Part shown: positions 30,057 through 63,715 of the stretch, piece by piece | Layout of the letters: every line of letters starts with the position of its first letter | Position numbering within the stretch: the stretch's first letter is position 1 | NCBI GenBank assembly: GCA_041749335.1 | Contig: JBGTBM010000009.1 | Coordinates: 64,179 to 128,178, forward strand | Length of the DNA stretch: 64,000 nucleotides | Reading direction: 5' to 3' | Origin: Patescibacteria group bacterium | Lineage (GTDB): Bacteria > Patescibacteriota > JABMPQ01 | Notes under the pieces: model-generated | What the model was told of the DNA's origin: nothing | What the model saw: the letters and a program-made list of their open reading frames with translations, nothing else | Database searches by the model: none | Position numbers and translations under genes: made by a program

Positions 30057-30584
30057 TTAATCTTCCTTAAGTATTTCATCATCTACCCTCAATCTACTTT
30101 CAAACATGGAGTCTACCAAATATATTTTATTATTTAGAGAAGTTTTAATATATGCTTTTGTTTGTTGAGGATTTAAATTTCCAATAATCAACGAAATTTC
30201 TTCATCGCTATTTTTAGTGAATATTATTTCAGTTGTTGGATTATCTAGCCCATATTCAGCCAAATTATCTGATTCAAATTTCTGTTCAGACTCCGCATTA
30301 TTCACTTCAGTTATTATATCACTTATTTTTTGCTGGCGCGCCTTATATTTTATTGGTTTGATTATTTTCCAATCCTCTCCATCTTTTTTGACTATAGTCT
30401 CCTTATTATCATAAGAGAATTTTATCTGTTTAATTTCACTTTCTTCAATTTGAATAATTTGATAAGTTTCTATTTCTTCCGGGTCCTTTACAAGACGATC
30501 TTTTTCATAAAAATAAACAAATAAGAACAATACTGCAAAAATTGCGATTAATATGTATGTAGTTCTAAATTTTTTTGATGACAT
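30057..30584 (-). CDS. DUF4340-like N-terminally anchored protein (partner of GldG-type ABC-2 systems)
   Basis: 175 aa. Single N-terminal TM and an acidic extracytoplasmic domain. Sits directly downstream of the GldG-like gene. Confidence 0.5.
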   Translation of the reverse strand: MSSKKFRTTYILIAIFAVLFLFVYFYEKDRLVKDPEEIETYQIIQIEESEIKQIKFSYDNKETIVKKDGEDWKIIKPIKYKARQQKISDIITEVNNAESEQKFESDNLAEYGLDNPTTEIIFTKNSDEEISLIIGNLNPQQTKAYIKTSLNNKIYLVDSMFESRLRVDDEILKED

Positions 30585-30590
30585 TGTAAT

Positions 30591-32075
30591 TTATCTTTTC
30601 GTTTTTCTTTTGCGATCCATCCAAACTCCGATACCAATAATAATTATAATTAAGGGCATGCCGATTACCGTCAAATAGAAAATTAATTTTGATTGTGAAC
30701 CGGTTAAGGTTACTGTCCTTTGCTCTTCTTGTTTTGGCCTGATTGATATAAGATCCTCTTCTTCTGCCAACCAATTTATTGAATTTATAAAAAGGTCAAA
30801 ATTACCCAAGGAATTAGCAAAAATATTATTAGCAAAATCGGAATCTCCCATTACTACAATTCTCGGACTATTATTTTCCGTTTCTTTCTTTTCCTCGGAA
30901 TCAGCCTGTTCCTCTTCTTTATTTATGCCTTGGACCGCTAAAGCGATCGAAATAGGACCTTTCACATCTTGACCTTCATTGTATTTAGCCTTGCCCGATG
31001 TCAATTCTTTTTCCAACCAAGAATCACTTGAAGTTTTGGCTAAGGGCTGGACTTCCACATTTTTTGGATGTTCGGCCGCCTGATCTACCTTGGCTACACC
31101 GGAAAAAAACGCCGGGGATATACTAGAGGTAATCTGATGATTTTCCCATTTTTCAATCACTGGACTGCCGACATCCGTCCAAAAATATTTTGCGGGATCA
31201 ATCACGACGCCGTCCTCAATCTCCACTCCCCATTTATACAATAGATCACTTAAATTTGATTTTGATTTTATCTCGGTTGACGGATCAATCAGTGCCATCA
31301 TCTTTCCACCATCATCTAAATATTTTCGCAGTAAATCCTGCTCTTTATCGAGAACCTTCTCCTTGGGTCCGGCGATAACTATTACATCAGCATCTTCTGG
31401 TATTTTTTTCTCTGTAATTAAAGATAGCTTTTTTACCACATATCCTTCTCGCTCTAATAAATCTTTAATTGTTGCATAGCCTAACTCCGTCATTGCATCA
31501 ATATCCTTTTCATTATGGCCTGATAAGAAGTATATCGACTTGATTTCATCGCGTGATAATTTTAAAAGGCTGGAAGTGATATCGGCTTCGGAGTAAGTCA
31601 AGGCCTGTTCTTTTTTATCTCCTTGCTCAAAAATCAGCGTGCCATATCTGGTAATGCCAAATTTTAATGCTTCGGCCGGTTTTACATCGGGATCAATAAA
31701 TTCAATAGAAATTTTATTATTTTTTGCCTTATATTCATTAATCAAATCTTCAACTTCTCCTCTTTGTGAATTATTGGTTTGAAAAAATCCGATAATTTTT
31801 ATATCTTCATCAATATTATTCAAAACTTTTAAAGTTTGATCCGATAGTGAATACTTTTTTATTTTAGTTAAATCCCAACGGATAGATTCCTTTTGAGCGA
31901 TAAAATTCACTAAAATCAATATCCCCAACATAACCACTAAAGCTAAAAAGGTATTGCTACCGTATTTTGTCTGGCGCAAGCCTAAAAGCTTAATAAGCCA
32001 TTTAAACTTAAAAAACTCTTTCACCTTTGTGGCCTTGCCGGTCTTTTTTTCAATTATTTCTGTTTTTTCTTCCAT
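30591..32075 (-). CDS. GldG-like ABC-2 transporter auxiliary protein
   Basis: 494 aa with N- and C-terminal TM segments flanking a large extracytoplasmic domain. Follows the ABC ATPase and ABC-2 permease. Confidence 0.6.
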   Translation of the reverse strand: MEEKTEIIEKKTGKATKVKEFFKFKWLIKLLGLRQTKYGSNTFLALVVMLGILILVNFIAQKESIRWDLTKIKKYSLSDQTLKVLNNIDEDIKIIGFFQTNNSQRGEVEDLINEYKAKNNKISIEFIDPDVKPAEALKFGITRYGTLIFEQGDKKEQALTYSEADITSSLLKLSRDEIKSIYFLSGHNEKDIDAMTELGYATIKDLLEREGYVVKKLSLITEKKIPEDADVIVIAGPKEKVLDKEQDLLRKYLDDGGKMMALIDPSTEIKSKSNLSDLLYKWGVEIEDGVVIDPAKYFWTDVGSPVIEKWENHQITSSISPAFFSGVAKVDQAAEHPKNVEVQPLAKTSSDSWLEKELTSGKAKYNEGQDVKGPISIALAVQGINKEEEQADSEEKKETENNSPRIVVMGDSDFANNIFANSLGNFDLFINSINWLAEEEDLISIRPKQEEQRTVTLTGSQSKLIFYLTVIGMPLIIIIIGIGVWMDRKRKTKR

Positions 32076-32084
32076 AATATATTT

Positions 32085-32795
32085 TTATTTCCATTTTCTT
32101 ACTTCAATAGCTTTTATACTGGCAAATAGCCAAAAAACTACAAAACTAAGATAATAAGACAAATTTTTAATATCCACCACTCCTTTAATAAAATCATCCA
32201 AGTGCGTTGAAAGCGCCAAATAATTTAACAAATTTTGCATACTTTCACCAACATAACCGGCTAGCCAATTTAAAATCCACAAAAGTAAAACAAAAGAAAA
32301 TCCAATCACGGCTGAAATTATTTGATTTTCGGTTAAAGTGGAAGCAAATATTCCCAAGGCAATAAAAGCCATCCCGCACATAAATACTCCGATATAAGAT
32401 GTAATAATCGGTCCGATATCCGGGTTTCCATATTTAAATAATATTAAAACATATACCAAAGTAGATAAAAGCATTAAGCCAAATAACGATAAAGCGGCAA
32501 AAAACTTACCTAAAACCACTTCAAAATCTTTGACGGGTTTAGTCATAAGAATTTCCAGCGTTCCTAGCTTTTTTTCTTCCGCGAAAAGCTTCATGGTAAT
32601 AAGCGGAATCAAGAACAGCAGGGTAATAATCATATTGTAAGCCACGCCGGTTAACGATGCCTCTTTGGTAACAAATAAAATCGCGGAAAAGAAATATCCA
32701 CATAAAATCAGAAACAACACAAAAACCACATACGCGATCGGAGATGTAAAATACGACCTTAATTCCTTATATGCGATTGTTAGAATATTTTTCAT
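32085..32795 (-). CDS. ABC-2 type transporter permease (GldF-like)
   Basis: 236 aa, 6 predicted TM helices. Confidence 0.7.
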   Translation of the reverse strand: MKNILTIAYKELRSYFTSPIAYVVFVLFLILCGYFFSAILFVTKEASLTGVAYNMIITLLFLIPLITMKLFAEEKKLGTLEILMTKPVKDFEVVLGKFFAALSLFGLMLLSTLVYVLILFKYGNPDIGPIITSYIGVFMCGMAFIALGIFASTLTENQIISAVIGFSFVLLLWILNWLAGYVGESMQNLLNYLALSTHLDDFIKGVVDIKNLSYYLSFVVFWLFASIKAIEVRKWK

Positions 32796-32810
32796 TTAAT
32801 ATTTAATCTA

Positions 32811-33782
32811 TTATTCTTTAGTGGTTAGTTTTAAGAAAATTTCCTCCAGGCCTAAGACTTCTCGGCGCATTTCCAACAGATGCCAATTGTTGCCGACTAC
32901 CACTTGAGCCAGCTTGCTTCTTACGTCTATATTTTTTTGTGATTCTACCTCTATATCAATCAAATCACCTTGATGCATTTTTAGTATATTTACATTTATA
33001 ACGCCATCAATTCCGGTCAATATAGTTTTTATGCTATCTCCGGGGCCTTTGATGGTAAGTAAAACTTTGGCAACTCCCGAAACTTTATTTTCCAAATTAT
33101 CCGGTGTATCTTCAGCCACAATCTTACCGCGTGAAATAATTATCACCCGAGAACAAGTAACAGACACCTCCGGCAAAATATGGGTGCTCAAAATAATGGT
33201 CTTTTCTTTACCTAAATTTTTTATAAGTTCTCTGATTTCGATAATTTGCTTGGGGTCAAGCCCGATTGTCGGCTCATCCATAATTAAATATTCCGGATCG
33301 CCAATTAAGGCTTGCGCGATACCAACACGCTGTTTATATCCCTTTGATAAGCTTTTAATCCTCGATCTTTTCACTTCATCCAAGCCGCAAACTTCAATAA
33401 TTTTTTTAAGATGCTTGGGTTTTTTTTCTTTAGCTACATTTTTTAAGCTAGCGATAAACTTTAAAAAATCCTCCACGTCCATATCAAGATAAATGGGATT
33501 ATTTTCTGGGAGATAGCCAATCATTTTTCTGATTGCCAAAGAATCTTCTAATATATTATATCCGCCAATTTTCACTACACCGCTGGTCGGCGGAAAGTAT
33601 CCGGTTAAAATACGCATTGTAGTAGTTTTGCCCGCGCCGTTAGGCCCTAGAAAACCGACTACTTCCCCCTTCTCAACTTTAAAAGACACTTTGTCAAGCG
33701 CCTGAAAACTGCCATATTTTTTTGATAAATCCTTAACTTCAATCATTAAAATATTTAAGCTTGTTATATTAAAATAATACAT
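32811..33782 (-). CDS. ABC transporter ATP-binding protein (GldA-like)
   Basis: Walker A GPNGAGKTTT, signature LSKGYKQRV, Walker B LIMDEPTIGLD. The true start is probably the internal Met (MIEVKDLSKKYG) near 33746. Confidence 0.85.
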   Translation of the reverse strand: MYYFNITSLNILMIEVKDLSKKYGSFQALDKVSFKVEKGEVVGFLGPNGAGKTTTMRILTGYFPPTSGVVKIGGYNILEDSLAIRKMIGYLPENNPIYLDMDVEDFLKFIASLKNVAKEKKPKHLKKIIEVCGLDEVKRSRIKSLSKGYKQRVGIAQALIGDPEYLIMDEPTIGLDPKQIIEIRELIKNLGKEKTIILSTHILPEVSVTCSRVIIISRGKIVAEDTPDNLENKVSGVAKVLLTIKGPGDSIKTILTGIDGVINVNILKMHQGDLIDIEVESQKNIDVRSKLAQVVVGNNWHLLEMRREVLGLEEIFLKLTTKE

Positions 33783-33821: not shown

Positions 33822-35150
33822 TTATTTTTTGTCTTTTCGACTATCTAATTTTTTTTTTATAAAAATACCAAAAAATATCACCGCCATAAATCCTAAAGTT
33901 CCTACTATTATTCTCATCACCCAAGAAGTAAATTCCGGTACCGCCGGTCCTCCCGGCGCGTCTTCTTGTCCAATAATGGCGGTACCATAATTTGAATTTC
34001 CGCCATCACTATATGTTATAATAAATAGCTGGGAAGTGTTGGGAATATAAGAAATATGATTGTATTGAGTTGTACTTGAATTATAAACACTGGCTAAACC
34101 ATGAGATATTACATCATTAGTAACAATACCGGTTATTGAAGTTCCATATGAACTATTTCCTACATCCGTATAAGCCACATTAATAGTGTATTCATTGAGG
34201 GCCGCAACATCGATATGGTCAGTTGCGGCATCATTAAATTTATCTCTGGTTCCAAAAATAATTGAATTGCCAGACACTTCACCAATAATTGAATAACCTC
34301 TACTTAAATCCGCATTATCACTATATGAGATAACGAATTTATTATCATTTAATTTATCAATCATCTCTCGCTGAACAGCTCCAGTGTCAAAAACTGTTTC
34401 CGATCCTCCGAATGTTATAACATTACCCGAGACAGTGCCAATTTTAGCCGCTCCATCGCTTGTTGCTTCTAAATCATGATATGCAACGACGAACTTAAAA
34501 TTCGAATCTTCAACTAAGGAGGCGACAACGTTTCGATCAACGCCCGCTCCGGCATCTTTATGTTTTACTGGTGACCCAAAAGTTATTATTTTGTTTGAAA
34601 CATCAGTGATATCCCCAATTACCGAATAACCATCACCGTCAGAAGTTTGCTTATAAGTCACAACAAATTTTGTATCTGATAATCGATCAACGTGTGGCTC
34701 AACTACAGCTACGCCGGGACTAGTACCCCATTTATATTCACTACCTACAGTTAGAGTGCCAGCGCTAATACTTCCGTATACCGCCGTACCATAATCATAA
34801 CTCCCCATATCATTATATACTATTACAAAACTCGTATCTGTTAATCTGGCTATTTGAATATATCCCGTATTAGCATTATTGAATGTTACAACGGTAGAGC
34901 AAGAAGTTATCGTTGTTCCCGTATGATCACAATAGCGAACAGTGCCAGTTCTAACAACTGAACCCGATCTAACAGCTGCAACAAAACGACCATCGTATAG
35001 CGCGGTAACATCATTCTGATATGTAGTAGCGGTTCTTATAACCATTTCACTACCAAAATTTAAAGCAGCTTTAGTATGATTCATAGTAAATAAAATTGCG
35101 GATAAACTGATAATGCAAATAATTACGCTAATTTTTCTAAAATATTTCAT
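33822..35150 (-). CDS. Secreted repeat protein (6-7 approx. 50-aa beta-propeller-like repeats) with a C-terminal PEF-TM-basic tripartite anchor
   Basis: N-terminal signal peptide. Repeated FV(V/I)xYxD...YG(T/S)A...G units. C-terminus ...AVPEFTSWVMRIIVGTLGFMAVIFFGIFIKKKLDSRKDKK. GC-richer than its surroundings. Confidence 0.6.
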   Translation of the reverse strand: MKYFRKISVIICIISLSAILFTMNHTKAALNFGSEMVIRTATTYQNDVTALYDGRFVAAVRSGSVVRTGTVRYCDHTGTTITSCSTVVTFNNANTGYIQIARLTDTSFVIVYNDMGSYDYGTAVYGSISAGTLTVGSEYKWGTSPGVAVVEPHVDRLSDTKFVVTYKQTSDGDGYSVIGDITDVSNKIITFGSPVKHKDAGAGVDRNVVASLVEDSNFKFVVAYHDLEATSDGAAKIGTVSGNVITFGGSETVFDTGAVQREMIDKLNDNKFVISYSDNADLSRGYSIIGEVSGNSIIFGTRDKFNDAATDHIDVAALNEYTINVAYTDVGNSSYGTSITGIVTNDVISHGLASVYNSSTTQYNHISYIPNTSQLFIITYSDGGNSNYGTAIIGQEDAPGGPAVPEFTSWVMRIIVGTLGFMAVIFFGIFIKKKLDSRKDKK

Positions 35151-35151
35151 T

Positions 35152-36009
35152 TTATAGGGTTATTAACATAGCAATTATAAATCCAATCGCCGCGCCTCCT
35201 GCGATAGGAGGCAGAGCTGCCATCGCTTGAGCATTTTTAGCATATTTTTGATACAAATTTATTACTATCAATCCCGCAAAAGCGCCAACAATAATTAATA
35301 TCGAATGCAACATGCCAAACTTTAAAGCCGATACTGAAAATACGATTGGGAAAGCTAGATCCCCCGTACCTAAAAACAAGAAATGATCGCCGGGCTTTGC
35401 TTTGTCCATATTGGCAAAAAGCAATCTTATTTTATTGGGGATTATAATAGAAAACATTGCTCCCTTTTCCGCCATCTTAGTAAACATTTCCACCATATGG
35501 CCGGTTTTATGCACCGCAATAAAATCATATATAACCAGAATAAGTAGAATTATTAAAGTCTGTGTGACCGATAAGCCTAAACCTAAATATGAACTAATAC
35601 CGATAATGGATAAAATCAATGTCAAATTGTGTAAAAATACATTCTTTTTATAATACCTTATTATAATTAATATCGTAGTCAAAAGCAAATTAATTTCTAG
35701 AGGTATAAAAACATCAAAAAAAGTTAAAATTCCAAAAAACAGCAAGAAATAAAAAATTAATTTAAAAAATGTTTCCTTTTTTGCATATTTTATCAATAAT
35801 AAAAGTAAGGCAGTACCAATTGAAAAGGAAATTATAAAATTAAGAATCGAGATATCCTGTTCTTCAATAATCTGTCTCACTTCTTCAATATTAAATAAAA
35901 CATAGCCAATATATAATCCTAAAAACTGTGTAATCAAAAATGAGACTGTTTCAATTATGACAAATGGCATGTTGTATTTGTTTTTTTGTTTTTTTGTTTT
36001 CTTTTTCAA
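35152..36009 (-). CDS. Presenilin/signal-peptide-peptidase-like GxGD intramembrane aspartyl protease (A22 family homolog)
   Basis: 285 aa polytopic protein. YD motif (LVIYDFIAV), LGTGD motif about 60 aa later, and an ALP(P) PAL-like motif about 43 aa after that. No Cys. Confidence 0.6.
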   Translation of the reverse strand: MKKKTKKQKNKYNMPFVIIETVSFLITQFLGLYIGYVLFNIEEVRQIIEEQDISILNFIISFSIGTALLLLLIKYAKKETFFKLIFYFLLFFGILTFFDVFIPLEINLLLTTILIIIRYYKKNVFLHNLTLILSIIGISSYLGLGLSVTQTLIILLILVIYDFIAVHKTGHMVEMFTKMAEKGAMFSIIIPNKIRLLFANMDKAKPGDHFLFLGTGDLAFPIVFSVSALKFGMLHSILIIVGAFAGLIVINLYQKYAKNAQAMAALPPIAGGAAIGFIIAMLITL

Positions 36010-36296
36010 TTGCCTATTTAAATTGATATAAATTCTGAGAAAATTTTATTGTCTTATTAGTTAATATAGTAAGACCTTCGGTATTTAGCAAGTTAATTTT
36101 CTTTTTATCTTCTTGATTTTATTTAATGATCTCTCTATTGAATTTTACTGTATAATACTATGAAATTTTAATATTACCAACATTACTGCTAAGAATTCGT
36201 AACTACCCTGGATATAGCAGGATTACCTATATAAACAACAATTTCAAATAACCTCGTCCTAAATAAATTTTATCAATAAATAAAAAAACCAATAAT

Positions 36297-37443: not shown

Positions 37444-38499
37444 TTATAACTTTCTAACAATCCCCTTGTCTGCATTAACCTCTACATCATCGCCGTCCTT
37501 AAATACTTTAGAAGCAATTTTGGTTCCAATTACACAAGGCTTTTTCATTTCCCGCGTGATAATTGCCGCATGACATAATACTCCTCCAGCATCAGTTACA
37601 ACAGCCGCGGCTTTTTTTATCAGTGGTAAATAATCTGGTCGTGTCATTTCTGCCACTAAAATATCTCCATCATTAAAATCAGCTACTGAAGTCGGATCTA
37701 AAATTACTCGGACTTTTCCCCTTACAAATCCAGAATAACCAGCCTGACCCTTAACTTCATCGCCGTCTTCATCTCCAAGAATGATTTTTTTTAAGTTTAT
37801 GGCTTCCAACCCTAGCCATGATTCTCTCATGCCTTTGTTAAAAGTTAAAATGCTTTCTTGATGCCTTTTTTGTAATATATTTTTCTGAGGTAAATTTCCA
37901 TTTTTTAAATATTCTTCAAATTCTTCTGACAGCATTGCTAAAATCAAATCTGATTTATACCCAGTTTTTTTGCTTATAATTTTTACTAACGCATCCATAT
38001 ATTCTTCCGAACGGGTAAAAACCGGCTCTGCGTAAACACGAGCTTCCTCCATCATCTTTGAATATTTTTCCTTCTCTTTTTCGCTAAAAACATCAATGAT
38101 ATTTTTCACTACGACGTGGGGTGAATAATAATTAAATAATGCATCAATATATTCTCTAAACTCTTTGAAGGTAACTTCTTTCCCCTCGTCACGATTTATA
38201 ATCGCTAAGTAATTATCAGTTTCTTCTTTTAATAACTCACAAATTTTGTAAATAGAAAGCTCACCGGATTCAATTGAACTTTTTACCTCATTACAAAATT
38301 TTATTTTATCTGACTTGCGAATACAGGCCGTAGTAAGTCCTTCTTTGTAAAGAAAAGCGACCCGGGGAATAAACATGTCAACTTTTGGCATATAGGGCTT
38401 TCTCATATATTGTTTACCAAAATATGAATCGCTTAATAAGCTAAAGCCACCGGCCCAATAAACTATCCAGTCGTCTGCTTTAAATTTCTCTATCGTCAT
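37444..38499 (-). CDS. PEP-utilizing-enzyme mobile (phosphohistidine swivel) domain protein, paralog A, with an unknown about 250-aa N-terminal domain
   Basis: C-terminal about 90 aa: GDILVAEMTRPDYLPLIKKAAAVVTDAGGVLCHAAIITREMKKPCVIGT. This is the PPDK/PEP-synthase phospho-His motif. No ATP-grasp GGK motif in the N-terminus. Confidence 0.65.
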   Translation of the reverse strand: MTIEKFKADDWIVYWAGGFSLLSDSYFGKQYMRKPYMPKVDMFIPRVAFLYKEGLTTACIRKSDKIKFCNEVKSSIESGELSIYKICELLKEETDNYLAIINRDEGKEVTFKEFREYIDALFNYYSPHVVVKNIIDVFSEKEKEKYSKMMEEARVYAEPVFTRSEEYMDALVKIISKKTGYKSDLILAMLSEEFEEYLKNGNLPQKNILQKRHQESILTFNKGMRESWLGLEAINLKKIILGDEDGDEVKGQAGYSGFVRGKVRVILDPTSVADFNDGDILVAEMTRPDYLPLIKKAAAVVTDAGGVLCHAAIITREMKKPCVIGTKIASKVFKDGDDVEVNADKGIVRKL

Positions 38500-38514
38500 A
38501 TTTTAAAATATTTA

Positions 38515-39426
38515 TTATTTATCTAAATTTTTAGCATCCTCAATTATATCTGCCAATATCTTCGGACTAAGCTCCATATCTTCAAATCCATACTCGCCTT
38601 CTAAGACAATTTTTTGGCCCTCACTACTATTAATTATTATTATATCAAATCCTTCTCCATAACCAAAGCCGTTACCATCTCCTTTTGCTTGTTTAAGTTT
38701 TTCAATAAATTCCTTAACTGCCTTAATACCCTTAATTTTTTCTAATACTTTCATATAAAAGCACTCTGATACTGTTTGGTGAGTTCCAAAAAATCTTTCT
38801 AATGTATTGCCGAATTTTGAATAATCATCAGGTTTTTTTGAAACAATACGATTAAAATTATTGGCCATTCTCATTTCCCGTGCAATTAGAGAAACATAGC
38901 CTGCTGCTTGCCTTGAATATGACGAACTCTCATCATCCCTTAAGCCTCTAACTAAATTATCGCTTTCATTAAGTATAAATTCTAAAGCCCTCCCCTCACT
39001 AAATGCTTGATGAGCTGCATGTTTAAATTTCTCATTTCCCTCCCACATAAAATTTAGTTCTGGCAATATAACAACCTTCTCACCATAAGACATTTCTTTT
39101 TCAATTTGAGCCTTTGCTTCATCATAACTCATATCCGCTGTTAAACCTGCTTTTTCTCCTGCCATTTGTAATAAAGCTGTGTGACCAGATCGAACTCGAT
39201 CACTTCCTGCCGCCCATGCAACTTCTGGTTTTGATTTTAGTTTCAAGCTTTTATTAATCGCAGCTTGCTTACCAGCTTTTGTTAACTGAATATCTTTATC
39301 CGATTGCCCCGGCAAAGCTTTATCTTTTTCTTGATGACGCATAAAATGAAGAATAACCCTTGTCTCTGGCCTTATTTCCTGTTCTTTTACTTCAGGAGAA
39401 GTGGGTATTTCACGATATTCTGACAT
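38515..39426 (-). CDS. Histidine-phosphatase superfamily (phosphoglycerate-mutase-like) protein
   Basis: 303 aa. N-terminal LHFMRHQEKD (RHG-like catalytic motif) and a downstream SGHTALL region. Locally GC-richer. Confidence 0.5.
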   Translation of the reverse strand: MSEYREIPTSPEVKEQEIRPETRVILHFMRHQEKDKALPGQSDKDIQLTKAGKQAAINKSLKLKSKPEVAWAAGSDRVRSGHTALLQMAGEKAGLTADMSYDEAKAQIEKEMSYGEKVVILPELNFMWEGNEKFKHAAHQAFSEGRALEFILNESDNLVRGLRDDESSSYSRQAAGYVSLIAREMRMANNFNRIVSKKPDDYSKFGNTLERFFGTHQTVSECFYMKVLEKIKGIKAVKEFIEKLKQAKGDGNGFGYGEGFDIIIINSSEGQKIVLEGEYGFEDMELSPKILADIIEDAKNLDK

Positions 39427-39435
39427 AAATTAATT

Positions 39436-40893
39436 TTATTTGATTTTTGTAACTATTCCCTTTTTAGCATAAACTTCAACCCTATCGCCGTCTTTCAAAG
39501 CTCTGGTAGAAATTTTCGTACCCACTATGCACGGAATATTAAGCTCTCTAGATACAATGGCGGCATGAGAAGTCATACCACCCTCATCGGCAATGATAGC
39601 AGCTGCTTTTTTCATCGCTATAATATATTCAGGCGATGTCATACTGGCCACCAAAATATCGCCTTTTTCCATTTTATTGTTATCTTTAAAAGGATCTTTA
39701 ATGATTTTTACAACTCCAGACACCTTATTTTTACTTCCCGTGCTGACAACCGTACCCTTTATTATTTTTACCTTAATTTTCGTCTTCGGCCAAAATATAT
39801 TCAAATATTTTTTTATTATAATATGATCGACTTCAATTTGTAAATTATCGTTTTTGCCATATAGCATATAATAATTCAACCTTTTTCCGACTTCCGCCTT
39901 ATTTATTTTTTTTGGTTCTTTTAATAAAATTAAGAGTTCATACGGCCACATCCACTGTAATTTTTTTAAGTCCCATTTCCTCCTTTTTGCTATTTCGCCA
40001 ATAAATAAATCCCAAAAATAGTTCATTTTCCAAATATACGCTTTTCTGTGATCCTGCCACCAAATACATTCACTCAGCTGCTTTGCGATATAAATAATTT
40101 CACTATTTAATTTTATTTTTTTTATCAACCTTTCCTTTCTTAGGCTGTTATTTCTAATGTTATTTTTTATTTCATCAATTCTTATTTTAGCGCTTTTTTC
40201 TTTTAATAAGTCCTGTAATTTTTTATCAAAGTATCCACTCTTTAAAACACGGTTTCCGCCATAGCTATTTAATAGCCAATAATATTTTATCGCGTGTTTT
40301 TTCAAGGCTTTAGAATAATCATCCTTGTCTTTTATATTAGCCAATTTTAATAAATCCAACTCTTCAGTTTGGAAAAATGAAGGCTTAATCGGCGCGCTTA
40401 ATATCTCCAGATATTCGTCTGCTTTATCTTTAAATAATTTTTTCAACTTTTGCCTTAATAAATATTCTCCGCCCCAATTGGCAATTTCCGGCACATGGAC
40501 AATAATCCAAAATTTCAGATTAAAATCGTAAAATTCTTTTAAATGATTATATAATTTCTGATCGGATATATCCTTCCAATTTATTTTTTCCAACTCACGA
40601 GAAATTTTTTGGTAATCTTTTATCCATTGCTGATACTTGCTCCAATGCTGCAAATAAAATTTTTTGTCCAATAAATAATAACTAAAATATTTCAGTCCAA
40701 CACCTTGCAGCGCTTTCATTTCATTTATCCACAAACCGCGCCCGTCTTGATAAAGAACTAAGTATGAAGGCCATGCCCACTTATAAAATTTTTTAGTGCT
40801 TGTTAAAACCACTTTCATAAAACAGGAACCATATAAAATCTTAAAATCTATCGGGCCCCATTTAAATAGCTCTTTCTTGGGATCAATAATCAT
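39436..40893 (-). CDS. PEP-utilizing-enzyme mobile domain protein, paralog B, with an about 390-aa N-terminal domain of unknown function
   Basis: C-terminal GDILVASMTSPEYIIAMKKAAAIIADEGGMTSHAAIVSRELNIPCIVGT. The N-domain shares the KxYxWL...YGG...YF motif with paralog C. Confidence 0.65.
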   Translation of the reverse strand: MIIDPKKELFKWGPIDFKILYGSCFMKVVLTSTKKFYKWAWPSYLVLYQDGRGLWINEMKALQGVGLKYFSYYLLDKKFYLQHWSKYQQWIKDYQKISRELEKINWKDISDQKLYNHLKEFYDFNLKFWIIVHVPEIANWGGEYLLRQKLKKLFKDKADEYLEILSAPIKPSFFQTEELDLLKLANIKDKDDYSKALKKHAIKYYWLLNSYGGNRVLKSGYFDKKLQDLLKEKSAKIRIDEIKNNIRNNSLRKERLIKKIKLNSEIIYIAKQLSECIWWQDHRKAYIWKMNYFWDLFIGEIAKRRKWDLKKLQWMWPYELLILLKEPKKINKAEVGKRLNYYMLYGKNDNLQIEVDHIIIKKYLNIFWPKTKIKVKIIKGTVVSTGSKNKVSGVVKIIKDPFKDNNKMEKGDILVASMTSPEYIIAMKKAAAIIADEGGMTSHAAIVSRELNIPCIVGTKISTRALKDGDRVEVYAKKGIVTKIK

Positions 40894-42383
40894 ATTTTTT
40901 TTATTATTCCTTTATCGGCATCAACTTCTACCTTATTATTATCCTCAAAAATTTTAGTGGCATATTTAGTACCGATAATGCAAGGAATGCCAAGTTCGCG
41001 GGAAACAATCGCCGCATGACATGTAATTCCTCCCATATCGGTAACGACCGCTCCAGCCTTTTTCATCGCCGCAATTATCTCCGGATCAGTCATTTTTGAA
41101 ATTAATATATCTCCATTTTTCATTTTATTTAGATCTTTTGCGTTATTAATAATTTTAACGTTTCCTATTGCTTTGCCCGGTTGAGCGCATACGCCTATTA
41201 ATTGGATTATTTTTCGATCTATTCCTTTTTCGATTTCTACATCAATTGATTTTATAAAATTTTTCGCTTCTTTTTCTATAAAAACTTTAGTTTTACCCCG
41301 ATAAGCATATTGAACGCTATATTTATATCTTTGTTTTAACTCTTCAGCATCCACCTTACTTAACTTTAAGGCCGTTTTAATTTCCCAAGGGAGCATGCGT
41401 CGAACTAAAGCAACGTTGATTCCCAATCTATTTCCAATCTCTTTTATTAAATTTTCACTGGCATAAAATCCATAAAATAGAGCTTCTTTGCTTAAACTCT
41501 TTATGTAAATAGATTTTCTGGCAATGTTTATCAATTCCATAATGTCTTTATCAAGTTTTAAAAGCTTCAAGAATTTTTCTTGTTGTTTTTTAATATGATT
41601 TACCTGATTTTCTAAAAACCGCAGCCTTTCAATAATTTCAGCCTTATCTTTGATTAAATATTTTTTGGCGTTTTTTACAAAATATCTCTTATCCCAGGCC
41701 GGTCCAGACATGCCATACGGAAGCCAGCAATATTTCTTATAATGTTTTTCTAGTTTTTTGTTTAATATTCCATCGTTAATATTATCAAGATCCTTTAATT
41801 TTAAAACAGTCTTTATAAATTCCTGCTCTTCTTGAGCAACATGGTTTTTTATAAGCGGAGTAGCCAGAATGGCAAATACCACTTCTGGTTGCAATTTTAA
41901 TTTTTGCTGCTTTATTTTTTCTTTTAAAAGATTTATAACATATTTAGAAAATATTTCTTTGGGTGTTTCCATTACCCAAAATATTGTTCGCCGAAAATGA
42001 GCTTGGTTGTGCAATTCTTCAAATTTTTCATATAAACTGCCCAATTCTTCATTGCCTTTATCTTTTAAATTTACAGATAATAAATATCGGCCATATTCAA
42101 ACAATTTTTGTGAAAACTTTTCACTAATAAAAAATATTTTTTTGATCAGCTTAGGATCATTTAAAATTATTTTTAAATATTTATCGCCGGCATCCGCCCA
42201 TATTTTTCTTGGAAAGATATAGCTCGCCTTTTCTTTTATATACTCCACGACGCCAAAGCCAATATTTGAAAACCCGACAGATTCCATATCTTTAGTCATG
42301 CTCAACAAAGGGGAAGCGGCAAAAAGATAATGAGATGCTTCAGCTTTTTCCACTATTATCCATTTTTTGGGTCTATTTGACAT
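40890..42383 (-). CDS. PEP-utilizing-enzyme mobile domain protein, paralog C
   Basis: C-terminal GDILISKMTDPEIIAAMKKAGAVVTDMGGITCHAAIVSRELGIPCIIGT. The N-domain is paralogous to B (KKYCWLPYGMSGPAWDKRYF). Its 4-nt overlap with gene B suggests co-translation. Confidence 0.65.
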   Translation of the reverse strand: MSNRPKKWIIVEKAEASHYLFAASPLLSMTKDMESVGFSNIGFGVVEYIKEKASYIFPRKIWADAGDKYLKIILNDPKLIKKIFFISEKFSQKLFEYGRYLLSVNLKDKGNEELGSLYEKFEELHNQAHFRRTIFWVMETPKEIFSKYVINLLKEKIKQQKLKLQPEVVFAILATPLIKNHVAQEEQEFIKTVLKLKDLDNINDGILNKKLEKHYKKYCWLPYGMSGPAWDKRYFVKNAKKYLIKDKAEIIERLRFLENQVNHIKKQQEKFLKLLKLDKDIMELINIARKSIYIKSLSKEALFYGFYASENLIKEIGNRLGINVALVRRMLPWEIKTALKLSKVDAEELKQRYKYSVQYAYRGKTKVFIEKEAKNFIKSIDVEIEKGIDRKIIQLIGVCAQPGKAIGNVKIINNAKDLNKMKNGDILISKMTDPEIIAAMKKAGAVVTDMGGITCHAAIVSRELGIPCIIGTKYATKIFEDNNKVEVDADKGIIKKI

Positions 42384-61804: not shown

Positions 61805-63715
61805 GTGAAAAATAAATTTAAAAATATCATCATAATTTTACTGGTAATTATAGTTTTTTGGATTTTATATTTTTATGCTGGACATTTAATTTTGAAATTA
61901 ATAAATCCACAAATATTTACCTCGGAAAATATAAATAATTTAGATGGAAAAATCTTAACATTTTTACTTACTTCTTTTTTTTATTATTTAATCTATCAAA
62001 TATTTAGGTTTTTACTTAGGAAAGACAAGGCTTCCGATAAATTAAAAATTTTAAAAAAGGGATCGATATTTAAGTTCGATTTTTTAATCGCGACTATATT
62101 TTATATTGTTTGTACGTTAATTTTCTTTTATCCAATTCTTAGACTATTGATAAATTATCTAATTGGACCGCCTGAAGACAATATGCAAGGTTTATGGAAT
62201 ATTTGGTGGGGATATCGGGTATTTGAAAACGGCAATCTAAACTTTTCTTATACTAATTATTTATTTTATCCGGAAGGCACTTCACTTATTTATCATGATT
62301 TTTCTTTTTTGAATTATTTCATATCTTTATTGCTTAAGCCGATTGGAAATCTGGTCTTAATTTATAATATTTTAATATTGATTTCATTTCCGTTGGCAGG
62401 ATTATTTATGTTTTTTTTAGTTAAATATCTAACTAAAAATTCCTATGCAAGCATAATTGGCGGCTTCATTTTTGCATTTTCTCCATACCATGTTGCTCAC
62501 TCTCTACATCATTTAAATTTAGCTGCAATTTATTTTATTCCTTTATTTATTTTATTTTTTTTAAAAGCAATCAAAGAAAAGAGTAAAATAAATATCTTTG
62601 GAGCATCGCTATTTTTTCTTTTATGCGCTCTCTCTCACTGGAACTATTTTATTTTTAATATTTTTTTTATTGCTTTGAGCTATATTTATCTTGCATATTC
62701 AAACAAAAAAGTATTTATCTCAAAAATAATTTTGCGAATTTTAATTATTTTAGGTATGGCTTTATTTATTCTCTCTCCACTAATCTTGTCTATGATAATA
62801 CTCGGCTGGGACAATCCGGATATCCAAATTAATATCGATGGACACAATAAGCACGTTGTAGATATTGGCTCTTTATTAATACCTCACTCCTATCATATTT
62901 TTTCAGACTTAGATTTTTTTATTGATGCAAGAAATGAATTTACGGGATTCATATGGGAAACTGCTTCATATATCGGAATTATAATCCTGTTTTTATTACT
63001 TATATTTTTTCGAAAAATTGTTAAAAATACCGCGAAATACTTTGCGGGTATGGTCAGTTTCCTAATTTTAGCAAGCGGAACGCAAATACATTATTTTGGC
63101 AAAGAAATTCCGATTTTGCTGCCCTATGAATTAATAAAAAATATCCCCTTTTTAGCAAGCGCAAGAATTCCCGCCAGAAATATTGTTATTGTTTATTTAT
63201 TTTTAGCCATTATCATCGCCTTTATTATCAAATATTTATTTGATAATAATAAATCTTATAAAAAATTTATTTTATTATTTTCAATAATTACTTTATTAAT
63301 AATTTTTGATTATTTTGCTCCTATTAAAGAGAGAACAAACATTTTTTTACCGCAATGTTATGACAAAATCAAAGATTCCGATAAGGATTCTGGCATATTA
63401 AATCTTCCTCTAGACGACAGAAACCTGCCATTTAATTATGATACCAGGTTTATGCTTCACCAAACATATCATGAATTACCGATAGCCAATGGCTATATTT
63501 CACGCGAAAACGGTTCCACTCTTGTTGACAATCTGGAATTAAATAAATTTTTAAAACAAAAAAAACAACTCGCTGATAATCATATCAAATATATTGTTGT
63601 CCATAAAAATTTCCCCACTGCAAAATATCTAGATATCGCTGAATATAAAAAACACTATCAACTTATATGCGATGATAGCGAAAATATGATATTTGAAATT
63701 TTAGCTGATAGTTAA
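61805..63715 (+). CDS. Large polytopic membrane protein, possible GT-C-type glycosyltransferase (YfhO/ArnT-like architecture). GTG start.
   Basis: 636 aa, more than 12 predicted TM helices with short loops. Only sizeable plus-strand gene. No ATG in frame near the 5' end. Confidence 0.45.
   Translation: MKNKFKNIIIILLVIIVFWILYFYAGHLILKLINPQIFTSENINNLDGKILTFLLTSFFYYLIYQIFRFLLRKDKASDKLKILKKGSIFKFDFLIATIFYIVCTLIFFYPILRLLINYLIGPPEDNMQGLWNIWWGYRVFENGNLNFSYTNYLFYPEGTSLIYHDFSFLNYFISLLLKPIGNLVLIYNILILISFPLAGLFMFFLVKYLTKNSYASIIGGFIFAFSPYHVAHSLHHLNLAAIYFIPLFILFFLKAIKEKSKINIFGASLFFLLCALSHWNYFIFNIFFIALSYIYLAYSNKKVFISKIILRILIILGMALFILSPLILSMIILGWDNPDIQINIDGHNKHVVDIGSLLIPHSYHIFSDLDFFIDARNEFTGFIWETASYIGIIILFLLLIFFRKIVKNTAKYFAGMVSFLILASGTQIHYFGKEIPILLPYELIKNIPFLASARIPARNIVIVYLFLAIIIAFIIKYLFDNNKSYKKFILLFSIITLLIIFDYFAPIKERTNIFLPQCYDKIKDSDKDSGILNLPLDDRNLPFNYDTRFMLHQTYHELPIANGYISRENGSTLVDNLELNKFLKQKKQLADNHIKYIVVHKNFPTAKYLDIAEYKKHYQLICDDSENMIFEILADS

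Follow-up and report, generated by a model that had tools for sequence, protein, structure and literature searches.

The window analysed here, a stretch of 64,000 nucleotides (nt) from a contig of a Patescibacteria group bacterium, carries on its minus strand two adjoining genes, the first encoding an intramembrane aspartyl protease of the presenilin/PSH family and the second a secreted, membrane-anchored beta-propeller protein. An earlier note on this DNA had proposed that the two form a dedicated protease-substrate or surface-protein processing module. The analysis reported below points to a different reading, which we consider probable: a housekeeping protease lies beside a clade-specific propeller insertion, with an adjacency that is historical and is no evidence for a dedicated protease-substrate system. 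Both open reading frames (ORFs) have exactly the coordinates that the note had given, on the minus strand, and their junction, TAA-A-ATG, leaves a spacer of 1 nt, not of 2 as it had counted. The features of the two genes are given here by window position, with residue numbers in amino acids (aa) and TM standing for transmembrane.

35152..36009, minus strand: PSH/presenilin-family intramembrane aspartyl protease gene (MEROPS A22, PF06550), 285 aa, TTG start
35524..35529, minus strand: YD (Y161-D162), predicted first catalytic Asp, closing hydrophobic segment 6; invariant in 18 homologues
35359..35370, minus strand: GTGD (G214-D217), predicted second catalytic Asp (GxGD), opening hydrophobic segment 7; G-x-G-D invariant
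35209..35217, minus strand: ALP (A265-L266-P267), PAL-equivalent before TM9; A-L-P invariant in the alignment
33822..35150, minus strand: repeat/propeller protein gene, 442 aa
35064..35150, minus strand: predicted signal peptide, aa 1-29, made up of MKYFRK, a hydrophobic core and TKA/A (the slash marks the cleavage site inferred from sequence)
33966..35063, minus strand: predicted seven-bladed beta-propeller ectodomain, aa 30-395, from seven repeats of ~52 aa, the structural model and Foldseek
33930..33965, minus strand: juxtamembrane motif EDAPGGPAVPEF, aa 396-407, where conservation along the protein is highest; modelled as disordered
33858..33929, minus strand: single C-terminal TM helix, aa 408-431 (24 aa), from hydropathy; modelled helix 409-439
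33825..33857, minus strand: predicted cytoplasmic basic tail KKKLDSRKDKK, aa 432-442; KKK invariant in orthologues

The A22 assignment made in the earlier note was borne out by profile search, alignment and structure. PF06550, for which the cutoff is 23.9 bits, matches the protease at 71.1 bits, with residues 24-283 covering positions 4-280 of the 283 in the profile. The NCBIfam equivalog model for PSH, NF041679, scores 75.3 bits, under its cutoff of 125, and the protein is therefore a member of the family and not an equivalog of archaeal PSH by the NCBI criterion. Comparison by phmmer with the PSH entry 4HYC of the Protein Data Bank (PDB) gave E=3e-11, and the motifs of the two proteins align in register: YD161-162 with VYD (VYDAISV), GTGD214-217 with GMGD and ALPP265-268 with GLPPL. 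Motif conservation was read from an alignment of 18 diverse homologues, most of which have the PAL-equivalent in the context PALPPIA and those of the window's clade in the context AALPPIA. The catalytic triad thus stands in the order that the note had described, YD, GTGD and ALP(P); its spacing was misjudged there, being 53 aa from YD to GTGD (not ~60) and ~48 aa from GTGD to ALP(P) (not ~43).

Topology and structure lead to the same family. The protease has nine hydrophobic segments in an N-in arrangement, with 20 Lys and Arg residues inside and 2 outside, as in presenilin, and the two aspartates are properly placed with respect to the TM helices, YD closing the sixth segment and GTGD opening the seventh. 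Orientation matters here, for the N-in orientation of presenilin goes with cleavage of type-I substrates. The AlphaFold2 model is of high confidence (predicted local distance difference test, pLDDT, 89.5; predicted template modelling score, pTM, 0.88), and the significant Foldseek matches are confined to PSH (4HYG and 4Y6K, TM-score 0.72-0.74), SPPL2a and PS1. Given the agreement among PF06550, the PSH alignment, the invariant motifs, the topology and the Foldseek matches, we regard the assignment to the A22 presenilin/PSH family, with about nine TM helices, as solid; judged from its sequence, the protein is an active-looking PSH-type intramembrane aspartyl protease. The NCBI gene call is shorter, beginning at M14 and giving 272 aa, and the additional basic N-terminal extension, KKKTKKQKNKYN (35971-36009), is retained in the orthologues P0122 and P0124.

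Such a protease in a bacterial genome had been called unusual in the earlier note, a view that the distribution of the family does not sustain. A search of GTDB species genomes with one conserved peptide pattern yielded at least 535 confirmed PSH relatives; by record title, ~51 of the best 80 relatives are bacterial (mostly Patescibacteria lineages, together with Dehalococcoidales) and ~29 archaeal (DPANN, Methanosarcinales). Names are already in place at NCBI and JGI, among them 'presenilin family intramembrane aspartyl protease [Patescibacteria group bacterium]' and 'presenilin-like A22 family membrane protease'. The family occurs widely, as one copy per genome, across Patescibacteria and DPANN archaea, and PSH-type proteases are apparently a widespread, housekeeping component of the membranes of both groups. 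Literature queries combining presenilin with Patescibacteria or the candidate phyla radiation returned papers on the gut microbiome in Alzheimer's disease or nothing. Archaeal A22 homologues have been described as candidate signal-peptide peptidases with natural targets unknown (PMC8305020; PMC9263693), and the entry for the A22 protease in a 2022 review of Haloferax volcanii reads 'Unknown' (PMC9263693). As a separate observation, DPANN and Patescibacteria relatives intermingle by similarity: the protein of L013 (Undinarchaeota) is 44% identical to the window protease, as compared with 31-38% for most Patescibacteria proteins, a pattern that hints at possible interdomain transfer between these ultra-small groups.

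The product of the second gene conforms to the secreted, propeller-like repeat protein that the earlier note had described. Its seven repeats of ~52 aa are mutually alignable, and the structural model is all-beta with approximately seven blades (pLDDT 86.4, pTM 0.83, with most of the ectodomain above pLDDT 90); the signal peptide, hydrophobic at aa 7-25, forms a separate N-terminal helix in the same model. Foldseek returned beta-propellers only, with best TM-scores of 0.70-0.77 to seven-bladed PLL lectins and Sec12. The protein has no Pfam or NCBIfam match, belonging to a repeat family that lacks a Pfam model, and a sequence search against the PDB gave nothing significant. The tripartite tail reported in the note, consisting of EDAPGGPAVPEF, a 24-aa helix and KKKLDSRKDKK, is present and is conserved in five orthologues, four of them full-length and the fifth a fragment (P0241) with EDAPGGPAIPEF as its stalk. 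In the orthologues the conserved stalk has the consensus EDAPGGPxVPEF; in the model pLDDT falls below 50 over residues 399-413. Conservation is very uneven along the protein, pairwise identity among four orthologues being 89% over residues 397-407, 46% over the propeller and 53% over the TM helix, where two of three glycines are invariant.

A signal peptide at one end and a basic tail at the other make this a type-I protein (N-out, C-in). It is predicted to be Sec-exported and held at the surface through an ordinary type-I anchor whose Pro/Gly-rich stalk is conserved. Its identity is 42-44% among genomes with 82-85% identity in their PSH and ABC transporter genes, a low value typical of an exposed, fast-evolving surface protein, and the protein probably has a role in surface binding or recognition. 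The ~52-aa repeat itself defines a large family without a Pfam model, with the approximate consensus KVVIAYxDxGNSxYGTAIVGTVSGTSISFGS; 467 homologues were found among 8,000 candidates scored, with varied N- and C-termini (P0005-P0120 are among the members), and many of them end in a conserved 'YYVQxDGTLxT...AGTAISATxLIVKG' domain. The impression that these repeats resemble phage tail fibres was not substantiated, PHROGs matches being marginal only and a tblastn search of 50,697 phage records with the propeller domain yielding no match.

Composition and gene spacing do not set the pair apart from its surroundings. The window is AT-rich (GC 0.329) and nearly every gene in it lies on one strand. 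The propeller gene, as the earlier note had observed, is GC-richer than this background (0.363); its GC content at third codon positions (GC3) is only 0.233 and several housekeeping genes of the window reach 0.38-0.43, so the excess reflects a Gly/Ala/Ser/Thr/Asp-rich amino-acid composition. A foreign origin of the gene, considered on the grounds of GC, was rejected in view of the low GC3. Gaps of at most 5 nt separate 23 of the 56 same-strand neighbour pairs in the window (41%), and the tight spacing of protease and propeller genes is therefore the local norm and not distinctive. With genes so densely arranged, and almost all of them on one strand, the two are probably co-transcribed for that reason alone.

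The history of the adjacency was examined in related loci, designated by L numbers. Where protease identity is 82-84% (L001-L003), the propeller gene directly follows the protease within a fully syntenic block of 12 genes, and in the three genomes with context the two genes are either 1 nt apart or overlap by 4 nt. At 66% identity (L164), 52% (L004), 48% (L019) and 47% (L008) the adjacency is absent: the gene directly downstream of PSH is that of the ABC ATPase, with no propeller gene. The transporter genes and their counterparts are located as follows.

30057..33782, minus strand: ABC ATPase, ABC-2 permease, GldG-like auxiliary protein (TIGR03521 match, under cutoff) and DUF4340, from synteny with L001, L002, L004, L008, L019 and L164
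L004 7382-11225, L008 7082-10833, L164 967-1530, and also L019: counterparts of this ABC block

The most parsimonious account of these arrangements would be that the propeller gene entered once, landing between the PSH and ABC transporter genes in the ancestor of one narrow clade. The genomes that share the adjacency are too closely related (82-84% PSH identity, fully syntenic flanks) for it to count as independent evidence. A scripted survey of immediate PSH neighbours in ~80 loci found varied, unrelated housekeeping genes. Outside the clade it detected one C-terminally anchored neighbour, upstream of PSH in a Pacearchaeote (L016), and none downstream; the filter used for such anchors also selects 5 of the 844 non-polytopic ORFs in the fetched loci, a background from which the L016 case is no different. 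Propeller homologues without the tail occur elsewhere in Patescibacteria, in envelope loci with Wzy_C, PMT and TPR genes and with no PSH gene. Several relatives at ~47-52% identity encode a small secreted or one-TM protein immediately 5' of PSH, a Big_5 protein in L008 (5528-5995), a PAPPA-like protein in L165 (4323-4874) and a 190-aa one-TM protein in L010 (5305-5877), none of which is C-terminally anchored by the filter used.

These results favour, as the likely explanation, a housekeeping PSH-type protease next to a propeller surface protein that is type-I-anchored and fast-evolving and whose gene is a recent insertion. The protease would belong to a conserved block of otherwise unrelated housekeeping genes, comprising NAD(P)HX dehydratase, in some cases an MGMT-like gene, PSH and a GldA/F/G-like ABC-2 transporter, and its role, which we infer to be a housekeeping one from its distribution and its neighbours, would most likely be a general one, the clearing of signal-peptide remnants or TM stubs from the membrane. 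The propeller gene would have entered this block, separating the protease from the ABC transporter, in a recent ancestor of the small clade. The notion of a dedicated module finds no support in an adjacency restricted to 82-84% identity.

Several observations weigh against the housekeeping explanation and speak for its main competitor, in which protease and propeller protein form a clade-specific pair, the latter being a natural type-I substrate of PSH whose cleavage frees the ectodomain or removes the anchor. The stalk EDAPGGPxVPEF, far better conserved than ectodomain or TM helix, exceeds in conservation what a plain anchor would need, and something may accordingly be recognising it; the N-in orientation of the presenilin-type protease fits a type-I neighbour as substrate; the TM helix keeps two invariant glycines; and the stop of one gene and the start of the other lie close together in each of the three genomes for which context is available. 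If the pair were an enzyme and its substrate, the stalk and the glycine-containing helix would be the determinants of recognition or cleavage, and nothing contradicts such an arrangement, the natural substrates of prokaryotic PSH being unknown (PMC9263693; PMC8305020). Set against these points are the absence of the adjacency at 66% PSH identity and lower, the lack of enrichment of anchored neighbours across the ~80 loci, the occurrence of propeller homologues elsewhere unlinked to PSH, and a gene spacing that is the local norm.

Size is a further difficulty for the pairing. In gamma-secretase systems, large folded ectodomains are shed before intramembrane cleavage, and by analogy the folded ectodomain of 366 aa would need prior shedding here; no sheddase is evident. 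On balance we consider the clade-specific enzyme-substrate pair unlikely. The stronger form of the claim casts the propeller protein as the first natural substrate that can be identified for any prokaryotic presenilin homologue, with the PSH of this clade recognising stalk and helix and cleaving the anchor; this seems to us improbable. Were it true, PSH cleavage would release a fast-evolving surface receptor or serve its turnover.

A second alternative makes the downstream GldA/F/G-like ABC-2 transporter the true partner of the protease, for instance in a shared membrane-maintenance operon, with the propeller gene as an interruption of the pair. The order PSH, ABC ATPase, ABC-2 permease, GldG-like protein, DUF4340 (followed by AP_endonuc_2) extends over 47-84% PSH identity (L001, L002, L004, L008, L019, L164) and outlasts the adjacency of PSH and propeller genes, an order that may reflect either inherited synteny or a functional link. 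Five relatives at 49-52% identity (L006, L007, L010, L011, L165) have instead an HD-domain gene after PSH and no ABC transporter, and more distant loci show many different neighbours. Both facts make the PSH-ABC order fit inherited synteny within one sublineage, and we hold a functional partnership with the transporter to be quite improbable.

The weakest alternative, which we judge very unlikely, takes up the likeness to PEP-CTERM/PEF-CTERM-type signals drawn in the earlier note: the tail would be a sorting signal of that kind, its processing enzyme would resemble an exosortase or archaeosortase and be encoded at some other place in the genome, and PSH would have no part in it. The tripartite build of the tail, in which P-E-F precedes a hydrophobic helix and basic residues cluster at the very C-terminus, the strong conservation of the stalk motif and a similarity of its VPEF start to TIGR03024 that is weak and below threshold speak in its favour. 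That PEF-CTERM model, with a cutoff of 23 bits, gives 7.4-11 bits for three orthologue tails and no hit at E<=10 for the tail in the window, and no other -CTERM model exceeds its cutoff; the basic tail is moreover Lys-rich and 11-14 aa long. Signals of this type normally mark several proteins per genome, and the tail was found on no other ORF of the window or of L001-L008. An exhaustive HMMER search of 1.84 billion representatives with a tail profile recovered the orthologue group only, and a scan of metagenome DNA for D-x-P-G-G-P-x-x-P-E-F gave 75 matches, all attributable to chance: most lay out of frame in GC-rich DNA, and in none did a TM helix and a stop codon come after the motif; a minimal PEF-TM-KKK signal falls below the sensitivity of both searches. 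Among the polytopic proteins of the window (FtsW, MraY, MurJ, EamA, a sugar transferase, a spermine-synthase fusion and a 636-aa protein without any library match) there is no exosortase, archaeosortase, sortase or rhomboid. The sorting-signal reading is weakened by these results and no further, since a minimal signal escapes the searches and the scan for an enzyme covered the 64-kb window.

The remainder of the window is that of a bacterial genome, with an RNase P of class A and peptidoglycan genes for FtsW, MraY, a MurG-MurC fusion and MurJ; those homologues that bear names come from Patescibacteria. The interval between the NAD(P)HX dehydratase and protease genes (36010-36296, minus strand) holds what is left of a degenerated MGMT-like gene (PF01035, DNA_binding_1), recognisable by tblastn (E=1e-12) and marked by in-frame stops and by 'S*YYTV' in place of the PCHRVV active site; an intact MGMT-like gene lies upstream of PSH in L001 (5769-6029) and L002 (1331-1672). 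Further along the minus strand, positions 37444-42383 contain three tandem paralogues with the mobile domain of PEP-utilising enzymes (PF00391 in the L001 orthologues), interspersed with a 303-aa protein of unknown nature. One of these paralogues, of 351 aa, is 39% identical to its L001 counterpart, as against 60-80% for its neighbours. The 636-aa polytopic protein mentioned above (61805-63715, plus strand) is the product of one of only two sizeable plus-strand genes in the window; it has about nine hydrophobic segments and matches neither Pfam nor NCBIfam.

Among characterised systems, the window protease is closest to PSH/MCMJR1 of Methanoculleus marisnigri (4HYC, 4HYG, 4Y6K), its best structural match, with which it shares PF06550, the three motifs and about nine TM helices; both are stand-alone proteins of similar length without gamma-secretase partner subunits. 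The two differ in host, a Patescibacteria-like bacterium here and a methanogen there, are ~20% identical, and are further distinguished by the Ala that opens the PAL-like motif in the window's clade and by the NF041679 score of 75 bits, short of 125. Presenilin-1 of gamma-secretase and SPP/SPPL2a have the same A22 fold and catalytic motifs (Foldseek matches include SPPL2a 9K92 and PS1 6IDF and 6IYC), and presenilin-1 also has the N-in orientation. The window protease differs from gamma-secretase in having a much shorter TM6-TM7 loop and no evident nicastrin, APH-1 or PEN-2.

The propeller protein shares its tripartite C-terminus with the PEF-CTERM/archaeosortase C and PEP-CTERM/exosortase systems (TIGR03024, TIGR02595; Haft et al. 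2012, as cited in PMC9263693) and departs from them in a tail that fails the curated model, occurs on a single protein and carries a longer, Lys-rich basic cluster, with no cognate sortase-type enzyme found in the 64-kb window. In its seven-bladed fold it resembles the PLL lectins of Photorhabdus (8Q82, 6RG2; TM-score 0.71-0.77) and is likewise predicted to be extracellular; it is ~10-12% identical to them, membrane-anchored, and a member of a repeat family without a Pfam model. A robust genomic link between PSH and a type-I membrane protein would have given a testable substrate candidate; the link at this locus is not of that kind, the adjacency being recent and confined to one clade. The unusually conserved juxtamembrane motif nonetheless makes the propeller protein a cheap candidate for an in-vitro PSH assay. 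Both proteins belong to known kinds, and the pair that they form is mostly ordinary.

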